From: Bacteroidales bacterium
Lineage (GTDB): Bacteria > Bacteroidota > Bacteroidia > Bacteroidales > WRLA01
Direction: 5' to 3'
Assembly (NCBI GenBank): GCA_963676415.1
Contig: OY781097.1
Location: 3,972,965 to 4,036,964, forward strand
Length of the DNA stretch: 64,000 nt
A program made the translations under genes and the position numbers. The notes under the pieces were generated by a model, which saw only the letters and a list, made by a program, of their open reading frames with translations, made no database searches and had not been told where the DNA came from. Below, in pieces: positions 15,435-47,059 of this stretch (position 1 is its first letter; each line of letters starts with the position of its first letter).

Positions 15435-15464
15435 AAAAGACAGCTCAATGGGCTGTCTTTTTTT
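15435..15464 (+). terminator. Intrinsic terminator after argF
   Basis: aaaagacagc-tcaatgg-gctgtctttt stem plus T-run. Confidence 0.75.
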
Positions 15465-15482
15465 ATTTCGGGAAAAACTTAT

Positions 15483-15851
15483 GTTTTGACACCAAATTTC
15501 GCGGGAAGACAAACTATAAAATCTCCAACAGGTTCCTCCAAAGTTTTCCTCATGTTTCGGAAACTTTGTCGGAATGACGCGTTTTACAAAGTCAGAGGGC
15601 AAATGCGGTGCACTTCGACTTGGTTCGGCTACGCTCACCACAGGACGCTCAGTGACCAGGCCGCATTTGCCTTAAACGCTTAATAAACAGCGTCATTCCG
15701 ATCGAAACAAAGCCGAACGAAGTGATTAAGGCTTTGTGAAGGGAGGAATCTTTTGGAGTTTATTTTATTTTATTAAATATCTTATTTCCAAATATCTAAT
15801 TAATAACTAATTTCAAACATTATCATTACCCACGAAATTCCTAGTAGAACC
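15483..15851. mobile_element. MITE-like element, decayed copy of 45684..46039
   Basis: Core 15530..15750 closely matches 45733..45953. Right end ccacgaaattcctagtagaacc is intact; left end is degenerate (gttttgacaccaaatttcgcgg); no clear TSD. Confidence 0.75.
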
Positions 15852-39261: not shown

Positions 39262-40514
39262 ACAAGGATAAATTTAACCCTTTAAATATAAGCGACAACA
39301 ATTTCGAGCAATGTGTAAAATGTACCATCTGCACGGTTTATTGCCCTGTCGTTGCGGTAAATCCCGATTATCCGGGGCCGAAGCAATCCGGTCCCGATGG
39401 CGAACGCATGCGCCTGAAAGATCCCTCCTATTTCGATGAAAACCTGAAACTTTGCCTCAACTGCAAACGCTGCGAAGTTGTTTGTCCTCATGGCGTGAAA
39501 ATAGGCGACATTATACAGGCTGCGCGCATCAAATACAGCAAGAAAAAGCCAAAATTGCGCGATATGATCCTGGCAAATACGGATATCGTGGGCACAATGG
39601 CCAGCACTTTTGCGCCTATTGTAAACACGACAGTAGCTTTGAAACCGGTACGTTCCATTATGGATGGTGTACTTAAGATCGATCATCACCGGGTATTTCC
39701 AAAATATTCCGGCCTGCGTTTCGAAACATGGTTTAAACGCCATGCCGCTAAAAAGCAGGATGCCTTTAAAAAGCATGTAAGCTATTTCCACGGTTGCTAT
39801 GTAAATTATAATTTCCCGCAACTCGGCAAAGACCTTGTAAAAATTATGAATGCAGCCGGATATGGTGTCCATTTGCTCGAAAAGGAAAAATGCTGTGGCG
39901 TTGCCCTCATTTCCAATGGTTTGATCAAGCAAGCCTCCAGACAGGCGAAACATAATGTGGCTTCTTTAAAGAAATCCATTGTGGATAAAAATATGCCGGT
40001 GATTTCCACTTCATCTACCTGTACCTTTACTATCCGTGATGAATATCCGCACCTGTTGGGTGTTGAAAATGATGAAATCCGCACCGACACCGAACTGGCT
40101 ACACGTTTCCTGTTCCGCCTGATCGATTCCGGCAAACTGAAGCTGGCATTTAAAAAGGATTATACCAAACGCATTGCATACCATACGCCCTGCCATATGG
40201 AAAAGCTGGGCTGGTCGGTATATTCTACTTCCCTGCTGCGCATGATTCCGGGTGTTGATTTTGTGATGCTCGAATCGACTTGCTGTGGTATTGCCGGAAC
40301 CTATGGTTTTAAAAAGGAAAACTACGAAACAGCACAAGGTGTTGGACAGCCGCTTTTTAATGCCATTGAAAGCTCCGGTGCCGACTTTGTGGCCACCGAT
40401 TGCGAAACCTGCAAATGGCAGATCGAGATGTCCACTTCAGCGAAAGTGCACAACCCGATTTCTGTTTTGGCAGATGCTTTGGATGTAGAAGCAACGATAA
40501 AGTTGAACTCGTAG
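39258..40514 (+). CDS. glpC: Anaerobic glycerol-3-phosphate dehydrogenase subunit C
   Basis: Two CxxCxxCxxxCP ferredoxin motifs, CCG domains, 'CCGIAGTYGFK'. Confidence 0.95.
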   Translation: MNKDKFNPLNISDNNFEQCVKCTICTVYCPVVAVNPDYPGPKQSGPDGERMRLKDPSYFDENLKLCLNCKRCEVVCPHGVKIGDIIQAARIKYSKKKPKLRDMILANTDIVGTMASTFAPIVNTTVALKPVRSIMDGVLKIDHHRVFPKYSGLRFETWFKRHAAKKQDAFKKHVSYFHGCYVNYNFPQLGKDLVKIMNAAGYGVHLLEKEKCCGVALISNGLIKQASRQAKHNVASLKKSIVDKNMPVISTSSTCTFTIRDEYPHLLGVENDEIRTDTELATRFLFRLIDSGKLKLAFKKDYTKRIAYHTPCHMEKLGWSVYSTSLLRMIPGVDFVMLESTCCGIAGTYGFKKENYETAQGVGQPLFNAIESSGADFVATDCETCKWQIEMSTSAKVHNPISVLADALDVEATIKLNS

Positions 40515-40523
40515 AGAGCGGCA

Positions 40524-40589
40524 GTTCGGGAAGACGCTCCATACGACAATTTCCAATGATTGTGTAATGGAGCGTCCTTTCGACGAGCG
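40524..40589. repeat. 66-bp hairpin direct repeat, copy 1 (copy 2 at 41410..41475)
   Basis: gttcgggaagacgctccatac...tggagcg.cctttc.acgagcg in both copies; internal stem gacgctcca/tggagcgtc. Confidence 0.85.
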
Positions 40590-40628
40590 CAACGGTTGGG
40601 GAATCCGCCAGGCTTAAGCACCCTTTTA

Positions 40629-41024
40629 TTAGTTTGTAGAAAGTACTAATTCCTTTAACTGTTTATTTAATTCCGCAACTTCAGGCACTATTGACAATAC
40701 AGTTTTTTCATCAAATTCAATGAAGTCGGAATAATCCGATTCCTGTCGCCAATCAAATAGATGAGCATATAATCTGCCAGATTTACGCGACAGCTTACCG
40801 GTTTTCACAAAGTGAAAAAATAATTGTGTTTTTATACCATTGTGTGTATCAGCTTTTATAGCCGACTTAAATAGTAAAGCATTAGCCAGGTGAAAGCTTG
40901 AGTAATACAATCGGTTCACTGCAGAATTCCATCTTTTGTTTTCCAACAACAAAAGGGCGTCCTCAAATACTTCATTCGATTTTGAAATTCTGTACTTGAT
41001 ATAATCCTCTTTATTCCCCTTCAT
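40629..41024 (-). CDS. HEPN domain protein (MNT-HEPN toxin-antitoxin module)
   Basis: 'SAVNRLYYSSFH..THNG..LFDWRQESDY' with an RxxxxY-type HEPN motif; overlaps the MNT gene by 4 bp. Confidence 0.88.
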   Translation of the reverse strand: MKGNKEDYIKYRISKSNEVFEDALLLLENKRWNSAVNRLYYSSFHLANALLFKSAIKADTHNGIKTQLFFHFVKTGKLSRKSGRLYAHLFDWRQESDYSDFIEFDEKTVLSIVPEVAELNKQLKELVLSTN

Positions 41025-41344
41025 ACTAAAAGCACCCCTTCATTTTTAATATTTTCATAAAGAGGTGTAATACTGTATTTATCCTCCCATTCTTTTTCAG
41101 AATAAACAAATGTTGAAATACCTTCGCCGGTTTCCAATTGCAGGTCAAAAAGCAAATCCCTGAATTCCATTTCAGTAGTGCGACCAACTTTTGCCTGTGG
41201 CAATAATATAAGTATATCCCAATCAGATTCAGGATGCATGTCTCCGCGCGCTCTTGAGCCAAAAAGCACAATTTTTGCAGCAGGTTCTTTCCGGATTATC
41301 TGCTGCCGGATTAATTCAGTAAATTGTTGATCTCTAATGGTCAT
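41021..41344 (-). CDS. Minimal nucleotidyltransferase (MNT) antitoxin-like protein
   Basis: 'LFGSRARGDMHPESDWDILI' GSxxxG..DxD motif. Confidence 0.9.
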   Translation of the reverse strand: MTIRDQQFTELIRQQIIRKEPAAKIVLFGSRARGDMHPESDWDILILLPQAKVGRTTEMEFRDLLFDLQLETGEGISTFVYSEKEWEDKYSITPLYENIKNEGVLLV

Positions 41345-41409
41345 AATAAACAAAAATACGAAATTTTATGAAACAATCCCGTTTAGGTTTGAGTCCCCTC
41401 ACACTTCGT

Positions 41410-41475
41410 GTTCGGGAAGACGCTCCATACTGCAATTCCCTACAATTGGTGATTGGAGCGCCCTTTCAACGAGCG
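41410..41475. repeat. 66-bp hairpin direct repeat, copy 2, within a cluster of REP-like palindromes
   Basis: Matches 40524..40589; followed by gagcgtagcgagg and cttcgcgtcttagcgccttagcgaga REP-like motifs. Confidence 0.85.
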
Positions 41476-42198
41476 TAGCGAGGAGAAACCCCAACACCCC
41501 TTCGCGTCTTAGCGCCTTAGCGAGAAAAAAATCAGCGCTCTTTGTGGTTCAAGCGCCCAAATCACCCACTTCATTGCCACAAACCCGCATGTATCACAAA
41601 TAATCAGGTATTTACAGCCCATGATCTGTATTTTATATACAAAAATCTGCATATTTCGGCAAAGCACATGCAGGTCTCCTGATCGTATATAACTGAGAAT
41701 AAGACAAAATTTTAATCACAGTATTTACTACATATAGATAATTATCCTATATTTGTGATGTCCTAATCGTACAAAAATTGATATATGAAGCGAATTAGAG
41801 GAAATAAAAAGCTAAGACGTGGCGTGATCGGGTTGAAAAAAACTTTTGAACCAGATGGATGAACATTAATTTTATTGGTCAGAGGCAAGGTATAAAGTAT
41901 TGAACGTGTTGGGTAAGTTTTCGGGATTTAGATTCATAAAGAATTTTGAGAAAAAAAAAGGAAAGCCCCTTGAGAATTACACAAGGATTAGCCCGGCAAA
42001 TATCAAGAAAACGCCTGACTTGCCTGATGATTTTAAATATGATAAAACATCAAATAAATAAAAGACGCAATGTCGGTTTATAAAGGTTCTTTGGGGTTAA
42101 TAAACCGACAAAATGTGGGATTATAAATGAGTTAGGGGGCATTTAAACAAAGTTTGTAGCTTTATAGAAAATACAAAAACTAATCGATAAAATTTAAC

Positions 42199-42867
42199 AT
42201 GAAACGATTTAAGGAATTAGAAATAACTTCGAATGAAAAGGAACTTATTGATTTTCTTGATTTATTAAAAAGATCTGAGACAAATAAGTGGAAGTATGAA
42301 AAGAAATTAACCAAAGACTATGCAATAAATATCATGAGTTCTGAAGAAAAAGTTGCATGTTTCAAAGCAAATTCATCAAAATATTATCATGCAATAATCT
42401 GGATGGTAATAAGTGATAGTCGAGGAAAAAACCAATTGAGAGTATCAAATATTGTTTCAAGAGAGATTCCATATCTAGGCAAGGACTTATACAATGAAAT
42501 AGTAACCAACTTTTATAATGATTTTGTATTTAAGTATAAAACAGATTCAATTAAAATCACTCTTACGTCAGATGACATTTCAATCGAGGAAATTGCAAAT
42601 AAAAAAACAGCAGAAAAACTTAAGAGATGGGAATCTTCATGTAATCGTTCAACAGGAAATTCTCACCCATTAGAAAGAGAAAGATGGTTTGATTTTATAA
42701 AAACAGCCGTTGATACTGATTCTGAATTATTAACAGGAGATTTGGAACAATGGTTAACTGAAGAGAAGAATTGGATTATAGAAGAGAATAATGTAACAGA
42801 GAGAATTATCCTTGATTTTGAATATGGAAGGGACTTAGTTAAATATTATGTTGGAAAAAGTTACTAA
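42199..42867 (+). CDS. Hypothetical protein (AT-rich, first gene of a cassette-like pair)
   Basis: 222-aa ORF, motifs 'LRVSNIVS', 'CNRSTGNSHPLERERWFDF'; 20-bp overlap with the PIN gene. Confidence 0.8.
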   Translation: MKRFKELEITSNEKELIDFLDLLKRSETNKWKYEKKLTKDYAINIMSSEEKVACFKANSSKYYHAIIWMVISDSRGKNQLRVSNIVSREIPYLGKDLYNEIVTNFYNDFVFKYKTDSIKITLTSDDISIEEIANKKTAEKLKRWESSCNRSTGNSHPLERERWFDFIKTAVDTDSELLTGDLEQWLTEEKNWIIEENNVTERIILDFEYGRDLVKYYVGKSY

Positions 42868-43558
42868 AAAGCCAATTGGAAAAATAATCTCTCAATCAAA
42901 AAAAGAAAATACTATTTTTCTTTTCTGGGACACTTGTAGCCTCCTTGATATAATTCGACTACCATTTAGAACAAATTCTGACAACAATCTTAAACTCTAT
43001 CAAAAAATAAACGAGTTAATTAAAGCAGACAAAGTTGTTTCAGTGGGTTCAGCTTTGACCATCGCAGAATTGAGTTACAACTTTCCAAGAGTTGAACAGG
43101 AGTACGATAATTATTTAAAAAAATTACAACGAGATTTTGACCTCCATGAAAAATACTTAATCAGATGTAATAGTATTGAAAATCCCATGTTGACTTTTCA
43201 GTTAACAGAAAAAGGATTAAAACAGCAACTTATTAAATTGTTTATTGATATTATTTCAAAAACAACATTTGTATCAGAAAAACAAGATTTTAATAAGTTT
43301 GCTCATTTTCGTGTTTCATATCATATGGCACCTGCTCAAAGAAAAGGAGAATATAAAGACTGTTATATTTGGGCAACTTGTTTAGAATTAGCTCAAGAAC
43401 TTAAAGCGACCAATAACGAAGTAATATTTTTTACACGTAATAAAGATGATTTTTATGATAATGGAGATTTATTTGGTCAAATTAAAAATGATTGTAGCAA
43501 AGCAAAAATAAAAGTGAAATGTGAGATTGGAGAATTATATGGAGAGATGAACAATTAA
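42848..43558 (+). CDS. PIN-domain (putative RNase) protein
   Basis: Acidic PIN motifs 'FWDTCSLLD', 'TIAEL', 'KDCYIW', 'FFTRNKDDF'. Confidence 0.7.
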   Translation: MLEKVTKKPIGKIISQSKKENTIFLFWDTCSLLDIIRLPFRTNSDNNLKLYQKINELIKADKVVSVGSALTIAELSYNFPRVEQEYDNYLKKLQRDFDLHEKYLIRCNSIENPMLTFQLTEKGLKQQLIKLFIDIISKTTFVSEKQDFNKFAHFRVSYHMAPAQRKGEYKDCYIWATCLELAQELKATNNEVIFFTRNKDDFYDNGDLFGQIKNDCSKAKIKVKCEIGELYGEMNN

Positions 43559-43562
43559 AAAC

Positions 43563-43758
43563 GCCCCCTAACATTTTGTATATTGCATAGGGCAGAAAGT
43601 GCGTATTTGAGCATTTTATCTTTTTTCAGCACCGCCGAAGCACAGCTTAGACGGCGTACCTAATTCTTAGGTGTCAAACCTGTGCTTCGACTACTTAGTA
43701 GCCTGACAGGAAAGTGCTTAAAACGCCATACGCAACATACAATTTACTGTTAAAGGAC
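43563..43758 (+). other. attC-like long imperfect palindrome
   Basis: Starts 4 bp after the stop with gcccctaac. Arms tgtatattgcatagggc/gccatacgcaacataca, gcgtatttgagcatttt/aaagtgcttaaaacgc and cgaagcacag/ctgtgcttcg; ends with gttaaaggac. Confidence 0.6.
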
Positions 43759-43842
43759 GTTTTGTCAATACCCATTTTGTGGGGTTTTGTATAGCTGTTT
43801 CTTTTAGCCGGTGCGGTGGGTCAACTTAGTCCGGAATATCCA
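43751..43842. repeat. 92-bp direct repeat, copy 1 (copy 2 at 46127..46218)
   Basis: Ungapped alignment with 6 mismatches in 92 bp. Confidence 0.9.
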
Positions 43843-43992
43843 ACAAAAAATTAATATCCACAGATCGCAAATATTTGCTAATTTTAGCCATAATTAACGG
43901 TTGTTTGGATGAGAATAAAGTTCTTTAGACAGCTTGTCCCGAAATTTTTCGGGTGATTGCTGTTATGGCATTATATTTAAACCAGCAAGATT

Positions 43993-45522
43993 ATGGGAAA
44001 AATAAAATATATTTTAATACTTGTTTTGGGCCTAAGTTTGCTTATCAGTATTATGCAGACCACAGAAACAGCAATAAAGCAGTCTGAGTTTTCGAATATG
44101 AGACACTATGTTTCAATTGATGGTTTATGGCAATGTACAACTGATACAGAATATCAATATCCACACGGAACACTTAAGTACTTTATAAAAATATATGGAG
44201 ATGCTTTTGGAGAAATCACAGCAAGAGGATGTTTCATGTGGGATGACCGTTTTTACGATTATTGGGAATTTGATACTGTTCGATTCATAGAATCTACCAA
44301 TGAACTTTTGCTTATTGATAACGAAGGCGGTAAATATAGAGGGACTATTGATATAAAGAAAGAAGAAATTAGGGGATTTGCTTTCTGGGAACCAGAAAAT
44401 AAAAATGATTCCATTAAACTTAATTTTCAACGGGCAGAAAAAGACGTTGTTAATAAATTGTTTTTTCCTATCACTCCGGGGACTGAAGGAAGTATTGCAT
44501 ATACTTATTATCAACCTGAACAGTATGATAATTATCTAAATATAGGTTCAATATTCAACTATATTACTGACTCAACAAGCTTTTACGATGTAATGGGGAA
44601 AATTATAAAACAAAAATTTGGTCGTTTGGAATCATTATTAATTATTAAAGATCAAAAGCTGATTCTTGAAGAGTATTTTTATGGTTACAACAAAACTCAA
44701 TTACATTACATTAATTCATGTACAAAGAGTATAACTTCTTTGTTATTGGGAATTTTATTAGAACATCATAAAAAACTTAATGTTGATCAATCTATTTTTA
44801 ATTATTTTCCCCAGTACGATACATTACTTAATGCAGAAAAGAAAAAAATCACACTTAGACATGTATTAACTATGACATCTGGAATTGAAGAGGGAGAAGA
44901 TTTCAATGGCGCTAACCCAGAAGAATTTATAAAATATAAACTAAGCCTTCCATTGGAATCAAACCCTGGAGAAAAATTCCAATACAGCAATGAATCCACA
45001 AACCTACTTGGGTGTATAATTTATACCCTCGAGAATAAGCAAGCTGATGAATTTGCGAAAGAAGTACTTTTTAACAAGTTAGGTATTAACAATTTTATTT
45101 GGGATAAAGAAAATGGAATTCTGTCTTGTGCAAGTGGTCTTTATATGTATCCAAGAGATATGGCAAAAATTGGCTTGTTGAGTTTAAATGATGGTTGTTG
45201 GAATGGGGAACAAATAGTCTCGAAAGAATGGATTAAAATTTCAACAAAACCACATGTAACCGAGAGTGAATTCTTTGATTATGGATTCCAATGGTGGCAC
45301 AGATCAAAGCAAAACAAATCGTGGTGGGACAGTCCATTACATGGAAGTAAAAATGAACATGATATGTTTTTAGCACTTGGTTATGGTGGGCAGTATATAA
45401 TGGTAATAAAAGACCTTAATATGGTTATTGTAATAACATCATCTGACAATAATGAAAGTAATGGTTTGGCATTTACTAAAATTCCAATGATAATTGAAGA
45501 AGTAGTTCCATTATTTAAATAA
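43993..45522 (+). CDS. Serine hydrolase, beta-lactamase-related family, with N-terminal extension
   Basis: SxxK 'SCTK', YxN 'YSN', 'LLLGI', 'PRDMAKIG', 'ALGYGGQ'; signal peptide; AT-rich. Confidence 0.85.
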   Translation: MGKIKYILILVLGLSLLISIMQTTETAIKQSEFSNMRHYVSIDGLWQCTTDTEYQYPHGTLKYFIKIYGDAFGEITARGCFMWDDRFYDYWEFDTVRFIESTNELLLIDNEGGKYRGTIDIKKEEIRGFAFWEPENKNDSIKLNFQRAEKDVVNKLFFPITPGTEGSIAYTYYQPEQYDNYLNIGSIFNYITDSTSFYDVMGKIIKQKFGRLESLLIIKDQKLILEEYFYGYNKTQLHYINSCTKSITSLLLGILLEHHKKLNVDQSIFNYFPQYDTLLNAEKKKITLRHVLTMTSGIEEGEDFNGANPEEFIKYKLSLPLESNPGEKFQYSNESTNLLGCIIYTLENKQADEFAKEVLFNKLGINNFIWDKENGILSCASGLYMYPRDMAKIGLLSLNDGCWNGEQIVSKEWIKISTKPHVTESEFFDYGFQWWHRSKQNKSWWDSPLHGSKNEHDMFLALGYGGQYIMVIKDLNMVIVITSSDNNESNGLAFTKIPMIIEEVVPLFK

Positions 45523-45683
45523 TATTACAATTCCCAACAATTAAGCATCGTTTTCCGTCCAAAGCCGATATATCCCGCTAGGCAGGACAGGTAATGCTTT
45601 GTGCCTGTCCCGAGAATCACACGGGACCTGTCCCGGGCCATTCGGGAAAAACCGGCATACATTTATTTTGGGGAATCATTTTC

Positions 45684-46039
45684 GGTTCTACACGGAATTT
45701 CGTGGAAAGAAAAATTACTTTATTTCAAAACAGATTCCTCCAAAGTTTTCTCATACTACGGAAAACTCTGTTGGAATGACGCGTTTTTATGAAGTCAGTA
45801 GGCAAATGCGGCGCACTTCGACTTGGTTCGGCTACGCTCACCACAGGACGCTCAGTGACCGGGCCGCATTTGCCTTAAACACCTAATAAGCAGCGTCATT
45901 CCGACCGTAACAAAGCCAAACGAAGTGATTAAGGCTTTGTGTAGGGAGGAATCTGTTAGGGATCAATAGTTCATTAATAAATATCTGCATATTTTTTTCA
46001 ACCATTATTATTATTACCCACGAAATTCACAGTAGAACC
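45684..46039. mobile_element. 356-bp non-autonomous MITE with ISL3-like ends
   Basis: 22-bp TIRs (19/22 match) starting GGTTCTAC; perfect 8-bp target duplication TCATTTTC at 45676-83 and 46040-47; no transposase. Confidence 0.88.
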
Positions 46040-46126
46040 TCATTTTCTACAGTATATTCCACCAACCACCTTTTGTGAAGTAAAAACAAGCCATTTTCGG
46101 CAGATAGCTTTGCCATGCAATAATTC

Positions 46127-46218
46127 TAAAGGACGTTTTGCCAATACCCATTTTGTGGGGTTATGTATAGCTGTTTCTTTCAGCCGGTGGGGTGGTTCAG
46201 CTTAGTCCGGAATATCCA
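46127..46218. repeat. 92-bp direct repeat, copy 2 (upstream of fabG)
   Basis: Matches 43751..43842. Confidence 0.9.
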
Positions 46219-46312
46219 TCGTAATCCCCACCAAAACCAAAGCCGCAACAAAATTGTTATATTTGTGGCCGAAAAAATTGTCGAAGCAAATTATTAATTA
46301 AAAAATACACGC

Positions 46313-47059
46313 ATGAAATTACTGGAAGGAAAAACAGCTCTGATTACCGGTGCTGCGCGCGGAATCGGTAAAGGCATTGCACTTCGTTTTGCACAGGAAG
46401 GTGCCAATATTGCTTTCACGGACCTGAAACGCGATGAAGTAATGGAAGAAACCGAGAAAGAACTTGCCGCCCTTGGTGTTCAGGCCAAAGGTTTTGCTTC
46501 CGATGCAAGCTCTTTTGAGCAATCCGAACAGCTTATCGCTGATGTTGTTAAAGAGTTTGGCCGCATCGACGTATTGGTCAACAATGCCGGCATCACCCGT
46601 GATAACCTCCTGATGCGCATGAGCGAAATGGATTGGGATCTGGTAATCAAAGTGAACCTCAAGTCGATTTTCAATATGACCAAAGCGATACAGCGCACCA
46701 TGCTCAAGCAACGTTTTGGCAGCATCATCAATATGAGTTCTGTGGTTGGTGTTGGCGGTAATGCCGGACAGGCAAACTACAGTGCTTCCAAAGCCGGCCT
46801 GATTGGTTTTACCAAGAGCATTGCACAGGAAATCGGCTCACGCAATATCCGCGTGAATGCCATTGCCCCGGGTTTCATCGAAACGGAAATGACGGCAAAA
46901 CTCACGGACGAACAGCGCGATGCATGGATCCAGGACATTCCTTTGCGCCGCTCCGGCAAACCCGAAGACGTGGCCAATGTTGCCCTTTTCCTGGCCAGCG
47001 ATTTGAGCAGCTACGTAAGCGGACAGGTGATCAATGTTTGTGGCGGCATGAAAATGTAA
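46313..47059 (+). CDS. fabG: 3-oxoacyl-ACP reductase
   Basis: 'TGAARGIG', 'VNNAGITRDNLLMRM', 'GNAGQANYSASKAG'. Confidence 0.95.
   Translation: MKLLEGKTALITGAARGIGKGIALRFAQEGANIAFTDLKRDEVMEETEKELAALGVQAKGFASDASSFEQSEQLIADVVKEFGRIDVLVNNAGITRDNLLMRMSEMDWDLVIKVNLKSIFNMTKAIQRTMLKQRFGSIINMSSVVGVGGNAGQANYSASKAGLIGFTKSIAQEIGSRNIRVNAIAPGFIETEMTAKLTDEQRDAWIQDIPLRRSGKPEDVANVALFLASDLSSYVSGQVINVCGGMKM

Follow-up and report, generated by a model that had tools for sequence, protein, structure and literature searches.

Background

The closest published description of the arrangement analyzed here is probably that of the rAID-1 arrays. Clusters of the rAID type (recombinase-associated acquired interbacterial defence) occur widely among Bacteroidales and, in the accessible text of the original report, a rAID-1 array comprises a 5' XerD-like recombinase gene, co-oriented genes with a GC content of at most 41% and repetitive intergenic motifs 'reminiscent of integrons', the recombinase sharing at least 44% identity with BF9343_RS08045 (Ross et al., 2019, bioRxiv 10.1101/471110). 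This definition is restated, in the part that could be consulted, by a 2025 preprint (PMC12247911). The accessible portions of both papers describe enriched motifs only, with no mention of hairpins, AAC/GTT cores, complementarity of cassette ends, a fold of ~137 nt or orphan arrays at GTT (10.1101/471110; PMC12247911). Integrons proper are defined as in IntegronFinder (PMC4889954; PMC9024848), and its 2.0 survey reported almost no integrons in Bacteroidetes (PMC9024848). Here, a 64,000-nt stretch of a Bacteroidales bacterium of the WRLA01 lineage (contig OY781097.1 of GCA_963676415.1, positions 3,972,965 to 4,036,964; 'the window') is analyzed, in which a two-gene unit followed by a long folded site, named P, lies between a glpC-like and a fabG-like gene. 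The interval 42132-43749 is likely to be one integrated cassette of a Bacteroidales integron-like site-specific recombination system and the first unit of a partly scrambled array that lacks a recombinase, with a tyrosine recombinase of 483-485 amino acids (aa) as the most likely enzyme.

A cassette bounded by complementary cores

The unit opens with the core GTTAGGGGGC (42131-42140) and ends with GCCCCCTAAC (43563-43572), and these are exact reverse complements of each other at 10/10 positions. The end core begins 5 nt past the stop codon of the PIN gene, which ends at 43558. An initial reading of the letters without database searches (the sequence-only reading) had already placed a start core at 42131, where it is present, and had paired it with an end core CCCCTAAC; the complementarity stands, whereas the assigned position, 43564-71, is one base off and should read 43565-72. 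The deviation of the cores from the integron consensus at one position is likewise as described, since CCCTAAC and GTTAGGG each differ once from the IUPAC strings RYYYAAC/GTTRRRY. The long palindrome that was said to close on a different core near 43749 is P itself, 182 nt in length and closing on GTT at 43749-51. The window cassette therefore displays the attC-type combination of an imperfect palindrome, R''/R' cores and a start complementary to its own R''.

The same rule governs cassettes elsewhere: they open with GTT plus 7 nt and end with the complementary 7 nt plus AAC, directly before the folded site. A covariance model of the P family, R1, was built and detected 20 sites in this genome. 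An exact upstream GTT followed by the reverse complement of the terminal 7-mer was found for 8/20 of them, and for 16/20 when up to one mismatch was allowed, compared with 6/372 (1.6%) and 86/372 (23%) in controls with swapped 7-mers (binomial P of 5e-10 and 1e-7, respectively). Exact pairs bound the first cassette of the related genome G002 (start GTTGTGGCAC, end GTGCCACAAC), a cassette of G001 (GTTGGCAACA/TGTTGCCAAC) and two of G004 (GTTAGGGCAC/GTGCCCTAAC and GTTATGCCCG/CGGGCATAAC). In this genome, other arrays obey the rule with GTTGTGTGGC/GCCACACAAC, GTTGGGCATA and GTTGGCGGTA; exact pairs stand at genome positions 3769852, 2365349 and 2692154. Other P copies close with ...TTTACCGTT and are then followed by unrelated 7-mers. 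The asymmetry on which the sequence-only reading had built its argument, a left core that matches the cassette's own R'' and a distal R' contributed by the neighbour, recurs in many cassettes, across the genus (five genomes) and among unrelated Bacteroidota.

The folded site P

Folding of the bottom strand in search of extrahelical bases had been suggested for P. As DNA, this strand reaches -44.9 kcal/mol, against -22.5 +/- 3.5 for shuffled sequences (z -6.4; 0/200 shuffles equal it), and asymmetric unpaired bases are indeed seen between the outer and the next helix. The top strand folded as RNA gives a z of -4.0. Conservation of the structure was assessed by counting pairs in an alignment (A2) of sixteen P-type sites from five genomes. 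Here, 85.7% of cells are paired, compared with 64.3% after column shuffling and 27-41% with slid partners, and 15/20 pairs have changed on both sides. The covariation score of 0.497 exceeds that of shuffles (0.136; 0/500 reach it) and of slid controls (at most 0.116). G-U pairs occupy only 3/315 cells, so that the hairpin is possible on both strands, which suits a DNA structure better than an RNA; P may fold as single-stranded DNA. In the sixteen sites, conserved unpaired bases lie beside the R box on one arm only. A further conserved unpaired motif in the 3' arm, TGACAGGAAAGTGCTTAAAACGCC, has the consensus TTGACAGGAAnGnnCTTnGnAATCC in the alignment and is a candidate protein-binding element.

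The window copy of P scores 129.6 bits with R1. Members of the family are mostly 134-140 nt long (typically ~137 nt; range 125-200 nt), and the 182-nt window copy represents a long variant with an extra internal branch. Integron attC sites span ~57-141 nt; most family members fall inside this range and the window copy falls outside it. The earlier description of the site as longer than a typical attC is therefore correct for this copy and does not extend to the family norm. BLAST recovers only three close copies of P and the covariance model was needed for the remaining sites, while strict hairpin scans with ungapped arms missed most sites because of bulges. No match in Rfam, either at the gathering threshold or at E<=1, was obtained for P or for two other repeats of the locus, E1 and a miniature inverted-repeat transposable element (MITE; Table 1).

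Movement of the gene pair and variation of the locus

The cassette encodes a 222-aa protein and a PIN_12 protein. The former has 14 homologues at 55-70% identity and no match in Pfam, NCBIfam or PADLOC; its AlphaFold2 model, with a mean predicted local distance difference test score (pLDDT) of 73, yields no fold match in PDB at E<=0.001. The PIN_12 protein is likely to be the nuclease of a two-gene toxin-antitoxin or defence-like module. Its homologues at 59-67% identity retain the same upstream partner, and for the PIN homologues P0002 and P0007 the two genes occur together in each of the five contigs examined. In a contig from the European Nucleotide Archive (ENA; L172), a pair 70% and 67% identical to that of the window forms the first cassette directly after a gene for a 377-aa tyrosine recombinase. 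This pair is bounded by GTTAGGTGGC...GCCACCTAAC and, relative to the window, a G>T change in the start core is matched by a C>A change in the end core. A third context is found in L173-L176, contigs from the Joint Genome Institute (JGI) and ENA, with the boundaries GTTATGGGGT...ACCCCATAAC. The occurrence of the pair in several contexts with a compensatory core change indicates that the unit moves as a whole while the pairing of its ends is kept; the sequence comparison thus marks the pair as a mobile module.

Comparison of the glpC-fabG locus with four genomes of the same genus (G001-G004) reveals a variable region with a sharp left boundary. In G001 and G002, the left flank is ~93% identical to that of the window up to ...ATTATAAATGAGTT (...AATGAG/TT), the identity ending exactly after ...AATGAGTT, and different DNA follows the GTT: AGGGGGC... 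in the window, GTGGCAC... in G002 (3.25 kb, three cassettes) and GGCAACA... in G001 (12 kb). The array of G002 closes on a P that is 97% identical to that of the window and lies behind a different gene pair, with identity starting exactly at AAC. The right edge of the variable region was placed at ~46232 by comparison with G001 and G003. The sequence-only reading had taken 42070-42140 for a partial right arm of another site. This proved to be incorrect, as the segment is a single-copy conserved flank with a small hairpin at 42071-42110 and without P-type features. The flank (42060-42130) was also considered as a degenerate attI or attC arm and rejected, since it has no P-type fold and no convincing likeness to the recombinase-proximal attI-like region.

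A genome-wide search for similar sites had also been proposed; R1 detects 20 sites of the P type here, and the genomes of the genus contain 11-38 each (E<=0.01). Under a limit of E<=1e-5, 32/41 genomes and 28/35 genera of the order have at least one such site. In G036, six P-type sites extend over ~43 kb downstream of a recombinase gene.

Recombinases that head the arrays

A conserved stretch of ~230 nt, located behind the C-terminus of a tyrosine recombinase and ending with ...GGGTTCTTATATRCRGRA/GTT, precedes several of the arrays in this genome. The corresponding gene is intact in G003 and G004 (483-485 aa) and broken in G000, G001 and G002. The array recombinase of the genus carries an N-terminal extension of ~200 aa and is co-oriented with the cassettes, and its homologues are annotated as 'site-specific recombinase XerD' in the source records. 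On NF040815 ('XerA/integron integrase', cut-off 220), its catalytic half reaches 215 bits, and the protein obtains 183 bits, in two stretches, on the IntI model TIGR02249 (cut-off 265); the enzymes from L172, Flavobacterium and Ignavibacteriota score 199-246 bits on the latter. When aligned with a true IntI, that of genome G031, all of these enzymes lack the insertion of ~40 aa that contains ALERKYP.

The recombinase-family profile was then used to fetch 80 loci, a scattered sample among the matches listed. Strict cassette chains lie just downstream of the recombinase in at least 11 of these loci in forward and at least one in reverse orientation, and the chained loci among the matches listed come from Bacteroidales, Flavobacteriales, Cytophagales and Ignavibacteriota. 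The chains begin ~100-400 nt past the recombinase stop codon in G003, G004, L172 and the Bacteroidota/Ignavibacteriota loci L093, L103, L107, L109, L115, L116 and L127.

As for canonical integron integrases, no protein of this genome scores above 85 bits on TIGR02249, none is found in the five genus genomes at E<=1e-30, and an IntI with the IntI-specific additional domain around patch III is lacking there. A search for an IntI-like tyrosine recombinase, as suggested with the sequence-only reading, was therefore successful only in part: a true IntI is absent from genome and genus, and the Xer/IntI-like array recombinase was found, in a broken state in this genome. Within the same order, G031 encodes a true IntI (locus L075, G031:C35; 325.8 bits on TIGR02249). 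This genome further contains ~20 sites of the P type, along with an array-recombinase homologue of 64% identity, from which it follows that both systems can coexist in one genome. Beside the G031 IntI gene, the intergenic stretches inspected measure ~45-100 nt; a single candidate attC-like site was noted in them, and none resembles P. The whole genome under study yielded only three tyrosine recombinase genes in intact form (Table 1), which seemed few for a 4.9-Mb Bacteroidales genome with so many mobile-element remnants.

Proposed mechanism and alternative explanations

The cassette nature of 42132-43749 is well supported, and a mechanism of the integron type can be proposed. In a free circle, the site would be closed by a 10-bp duplex of GCCCCCT-AAC with GTT-AGGGGGC, and recombination at G/TT with a resident GTT would open the circle. 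After integration, TT-AGGGGGC would form the first bases of the cassette and the closing GTT would be followed by the neighbour's sequence. The circular intermediate that we infer would carry the junction ...CAATTTACTG/TTAGGGGGC... (also written ...CAATTTACTG/TTAGGGGGCATTT...), and the predicted deletion allele reads ...ATAAATGAG/TTAAAGGAC.... The array probably entered a chromosomal GTT between glpC and fabG, a site that holds different cassettes in sister genomes. The enzyme would most likely be the Xer/IntI-like tyrosine recombinase of 483-485 aa that heads arrays in the genus and in Bacteroidota and lacks the IntI-specific insertion. This genome keeps a single near-full copy of the gene for this enzyme, which is disrupted, and the array can therefore probably no longer move.

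Several observations weigh against this interpretation. The array recombinase may act on P sites, to which it is linked by adjacency only. Array recombinases used as tblastn queries have no match in the 64-kb window, in agreement with the absence of an integrase stated by the sequence-only reading, and the genus-type gene of this genome is broken (2950149-2951922). The empty-site allele that had been proposed was not found in G001-G004, where relatives hold other cassettes at the same G/TT. Single core mismatches fall mostly at the distal, seventh position. Furthermore, the second unit of the window breaks the core rule (start AAAGGAC, end AATTCCC-AAC), and the Q-type site behind it closes on GCC instead of GTT. 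Other events must hence have contributed to part of the array, for example deletion, recombination (homologous or at secondary sites), or insertion of MITEs and insertion sequences (IS).

Among the alternatives, P and the other repeats could be ordinary intergenic repeats (repetitive extragenic palindromes, MITEs or terminator-like elements), with strain differences generated by homologous recombination only. The genome is rich in repeats, with ~100 matches of the MITE and the D7, E2 and D11 families; D7 contains the terminator-like hairpin CCCATTTTGTGGG plus a T-run, parts of the local array are clearly scrambled, and homologous exchange could explain why the window and G002 share the same P although the genes in front of it differ. 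However, this explanation leaves unaccounted for the cassette-specific complementary 7-nt cores at both ends, the compensatory change between homologous cassettes, the breakpoints exactly at G/TT and AAC, and the fact that arrays of distant taxa consistently lie right behind members of a single recombinase family; it is regarded as improbable.

A role of a housekeeping Xer or another host enzyme, as for integrative mobile elements exploiting Xer (IMEX), CTX phage and pdif modules, in place of the array-linked recombinase, appears more doubtful still. It is in keeping with the array recombinase being Xer-like itself, and the three intact tyrosine recombinases of this genome are restricted to a XerD-like, a XerC-like and a small enzyme in an IS91-like cassette. 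Xer enzymes can also use folded single-stranded hairpins, as with CTX phage. Yet, no dif-like 28-bp site was identified in P, and the start of arrays right after a dedicated recombinase gene in many taxa argues for a cis-linked enzyme.

The reading as a canonical integron remnant, a cluster of attC sites lacking integron-integrases (CALIN) whose cassettes were moved by a true IntI on attC, with the IntI gene lost or located elsewhere, is very unlikely and largely refuted for this genus. The AAC/GTT cores, R-box complementarity and imperfect palindrome do follow attC logic, and one genome of the order does encode a true IntI (325.8 bits against a cut-off of 265 in G031). Against it stand the missing IntI in this genome and genus, arrays that are headed by a co-oriented recombinase without the ~40-aa insertion, the short intergenic stretches inspected beside the G031 IntI gene, a conserved R box of 10 bp and the family-specific motif of the site. 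The least plausible alternative is that P acts in the cassette transcript as a structured RNA, such as a small RNA or an element of the 3' untranslated region (UTR). The strong covariation and the position of P directly 3' of genes on the coding strand speak for it. Against it, Rfam gave no match up to E<=1, G-U pairs are so scarce that both strands can fold, and the outermost helix recruits cassette-specific bases from the opposite (5') end of the cassette, at a distance of 1.4 kb, which an RNA would not need.

Comparison with known systems and implications

An integrated cassette of an integron-like system can be set beside two known types of array. By description, not by recombinase identity, and as far as the accessible rAID-1 definition goes, the recombinase-headed arrays of G003 and G004 and the composition of the window island fit rAID-1. 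The island is a low-GC region (28-35%) between flanking genes of 44-52% GC in a genome of 41.9%, and it contains at least two co-oriented low-GC genes with conserved intergenic repeats (P, Q/E1, D7 and E2), the features named in that definition. Unlike rAID-1, the window array has no recombinase. The cargo of rAID-1 is dominated, in the text at hand, by orphan immunity genes against interbacterial toxins; that of the window comprises the 222-aa protein with PIN_12, a HEPN/nucleotidyltransferase pair and a beta-lactamase fold. In scans that did not include the immunity profiles of Ross et al., no scanned cassette protein could be assigned to a known immunity family. The genome's other arrays carry, as judged by eye from translations, methyltransferase-, metallo-beta-lactamase (MBL)-fold-, Fic- and RelA/SpoT-like genes.

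With integrons and CALINs, such as the IntI/attC arrays of Vibrio cholerae repeats (VCR), the system shares cassettes bounded at G/TT, a start complementary to the R'' of the cassette's own 3' site, and imperfect palindromes with conserved structure and variable sequence, with similar types reappearing in one lineage. Entry of new cassettes seems to take place on the recombinase-proximal side, recombinase-less clusters exist, and IS elements and group II intron remnants (judged by eye here) lie inside arrays. The differences concern the recombinase, which scores 183-246 bits against the IntI cut-off of 265, lacks the IntI-specific insertion, is encoded in the same direction as the cassettes and, in the genus, is extended by ~200 aa at its N-terminus; a complementary R box of 10 bp (6-7 variable nt) instead of 7 bp; sites of 125-200 nt with a family-specific unpaired motif; and cassettes that are often 1-3 kb long with several genes. 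In the integron field, the IntI-specific (I2) domain is considered necessary for the recognition and recombination of folded attC sites.

Both descriptions offered by the sequence-only reading find a place here. A Bacteroidota-specific long-attC cassette system is supported by the core rule, the conserved fold and recombinase-headed arrays across Bacteroidota. 'CALIN-like remnant' suits this locus well as an array without a recombinase nearby: the window holds two sites, P (43570-43751) and a Q-type site (45536-45605), without a recombinase in 64 kb, and the term applies by analogy only, as neither is a canonical attC and the core of the second is degenerate. Whether the P- and Q-type sites and the insertion-less Xer/IntI-like recombinase form a second integron lineage, order-wide and probably spanning the phylum, with rAID-1 as its gut-Bacteroidales branch, is evenly balanced in our judgement. 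In such a lineage, cassette capture would rely on folded AAC...GTT sites whose R box is 10 bp long and specific to the cassette, and would proceed without the I2 domain; orphan arrays could be seeded at a plain chromosomal GTT, as between glpC and fabG, and the reported near-absence of integrons in Bacteroidota would be a detection artefact. The sequence signature of integron-type exchange is complete, comprising G/TT breakpoints, a cassette-specific core, compensatory change and a covarying fold, and it is linked to a recombinase without the IntI domain, the sites being present in the majority of the order's sampled genera. Should the link to the enzyme hold, rAID-type arrays, which matter for interbacterial defence in gut Bacteroidales, would gain a testable recombination mechanism, and cassettes could be discovered across Bacteroidota with a simple rule and a covariance model. 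For the window, the result shows that a chromosomal site without a recombinase can serve as a cassette hotspot, and that the local array is a decayed copy.

Features of the locus and the remaining array

The features are collected in Table 1.

Table 1. Features of the glpC-fabG locus (window positions) and intact tyrosine recombinase genes (genome positions)
Feature	Position	Strand	Remarks
Conserved left flank with insertion point	42060..42130	+	Single copy in genome; 93% identical in G001, G002
Hairpin GTCGGTTTAT...ATAAACCGAC, then AAAATGTGGGATTATAAATGA, both within the left flank	42060..42130	+	AAAATGTGGGATTATAAATGA directly before G of G/TT
GTT + AGGGGGC, crossover triplet and cassette's own 7-nt core (R'-derived half)	42131..42140	+	Reverse complement of 43563-43572
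Cassette gene 1, 222-aa protein, no assigned function, partner of PIN protein	42199..42867	+	Overlaps gene 2 by 20 nt
Cassette gene 2, PIN_12 (DUF4935) protein, 236 aa	42848..43558	+	Pfam PF16289, 36.3 bits (cut-off 32)
GCCCCCT + AAC, R''-like core, 5' foot of folded site	43563..43572	+	Complementary to 42131-42140
P, attC-like folded recombination site	43570..43751	+	AAC (43570)...GTT (43749-51); 182-nt imperfect palindrome
TGACAGGAAAGTGCTTAAAACGCC, conserved unpaired motif of P 3' arm, candidate protein-binding element	43704..43727	+	A2 columns 153-175, outside paired columns
GTT, R' crossover triplet closing cassette	43749..43751	+	Then AAAGGAC..., neighbour's sequence
Second unit, 5' end scrambled	43752..45535	+	D7, E2, beta-lactamase-fold gene
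Repeat D7, 92 nt	43751-43842		Copy 2 at 46127-46218, 93% identical
Leader-like repeat E2, ~130 nt	43842-43975		~12 genome copies, each upstream of a different gene
Beta-lactamase-fold gene, 509 aa	43993-45522	+	Pfam Beta-lactamase, 115 bits
Q-type short AAC...GTT-class site after beta-lactamase-fold gene	45536..45605	+	Left part of repeat family E1
Distal remnant, 5' region of recurrent cassette	45606..46232	+	MITE-interrupted; ends with D7 copy 2
MITE, 356 nt	45684-46039		GGTTCTAC... inverted ends; 8-bp target duplication TCATTTTC at 45676-83, 46040-47
XerD-like recombinase	3781772-3782686
XerC-like recombinase	555691-556536
280-aa recombinase	4098732-4099574

The island lies between the end of a GlpC-like gene at 40514, identified from the translated sequence, and the start of a FabG-like gene at 46313; the genes at 42199-45522 are co-oriented. 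After the closing GTT of P, the sequence continues with AAAGGACGTTTTG... and runs into D7. Of the relatives, G003 has the second unit and G002 lacks it. The core mismatch, the GCC close and the split of the distal remnant by the MITE indicate that this unit is scrambled and the array decayed. Q-type sites as a class form hairpins of 50, 70, 72, 92, 93 or 133 nt; 16 were typed in the genome, beginning ~12 nt past the stop codons of diverse genes, and their cassettes follow the core rule, with GTT as the closing core in 10/16 and GCC or GCT in 6/16. The whole E1 repeat was considered as one long attC and rejected, as it has no overall hairpin and splits into a short Q-type site and the 5' part of the next cassette.

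Both D7 copies open with CCCATTTTGTGGG plus a T-run, terminator-like in appearance (43771-43783 and 46147-46159), and the second half of D7 is multi-copy in G001-G003, with ~4-10 further copies per genome. At least two of the genes led by E2 encode beta-lactamase-like proteins, and E2 is also found downstream of a repeated transposase-like gene of ~519 aa (judged by eye); it may be a shared promoter/5' UTR module. The MITE has ~100 nhmmer matches in the genome, and a second window copy lies at ~15462-15851.

Upstream of the left flank, the segment 40524-41496 contains, on the minus strand, a HEPN (40629-41024) and nucleotidyltransferase (41021-41353) gene pair that is flanked by a palindromic repeat of ~70-100 nt, D11, at 40524-40594 and 41410-41480 (80% identical). 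G001 and G002 have one D11 and lack the pair, which marks a separate insertion/deletion polymorphism. D11 has ~15 matches in the genome.

Elsewhere, the recurrent cassette carries an antisense IS91-family-like transposase gene (379 aa, judged by eye) and the gene for the 280-aa tyrosine recombinase. At C1:4098513-4101267, outside the window, this unit has a Q-type site before and a P-type site after it, and it can be read either as an IS that targets the sites or as a true cassette. Deletion derivatives occur at 2573026, 2575695, 2693370, 2964714 and 3921732, and several copies are internal deletions that fuse the first 60 recombinase codons to the last 14 transposase codons. Group IIC-attC introns are known from integrons, and the putative introns of these arrays recall them: genes resembling group II intron reverse transcriptases/maturases (by eye) lie inside arrays at C1:2961311-2962876 and 4102745-4104310, and sequences resembling intron 3' remnants (by eye) at 3771102-3771300 and 2966808-2966887.

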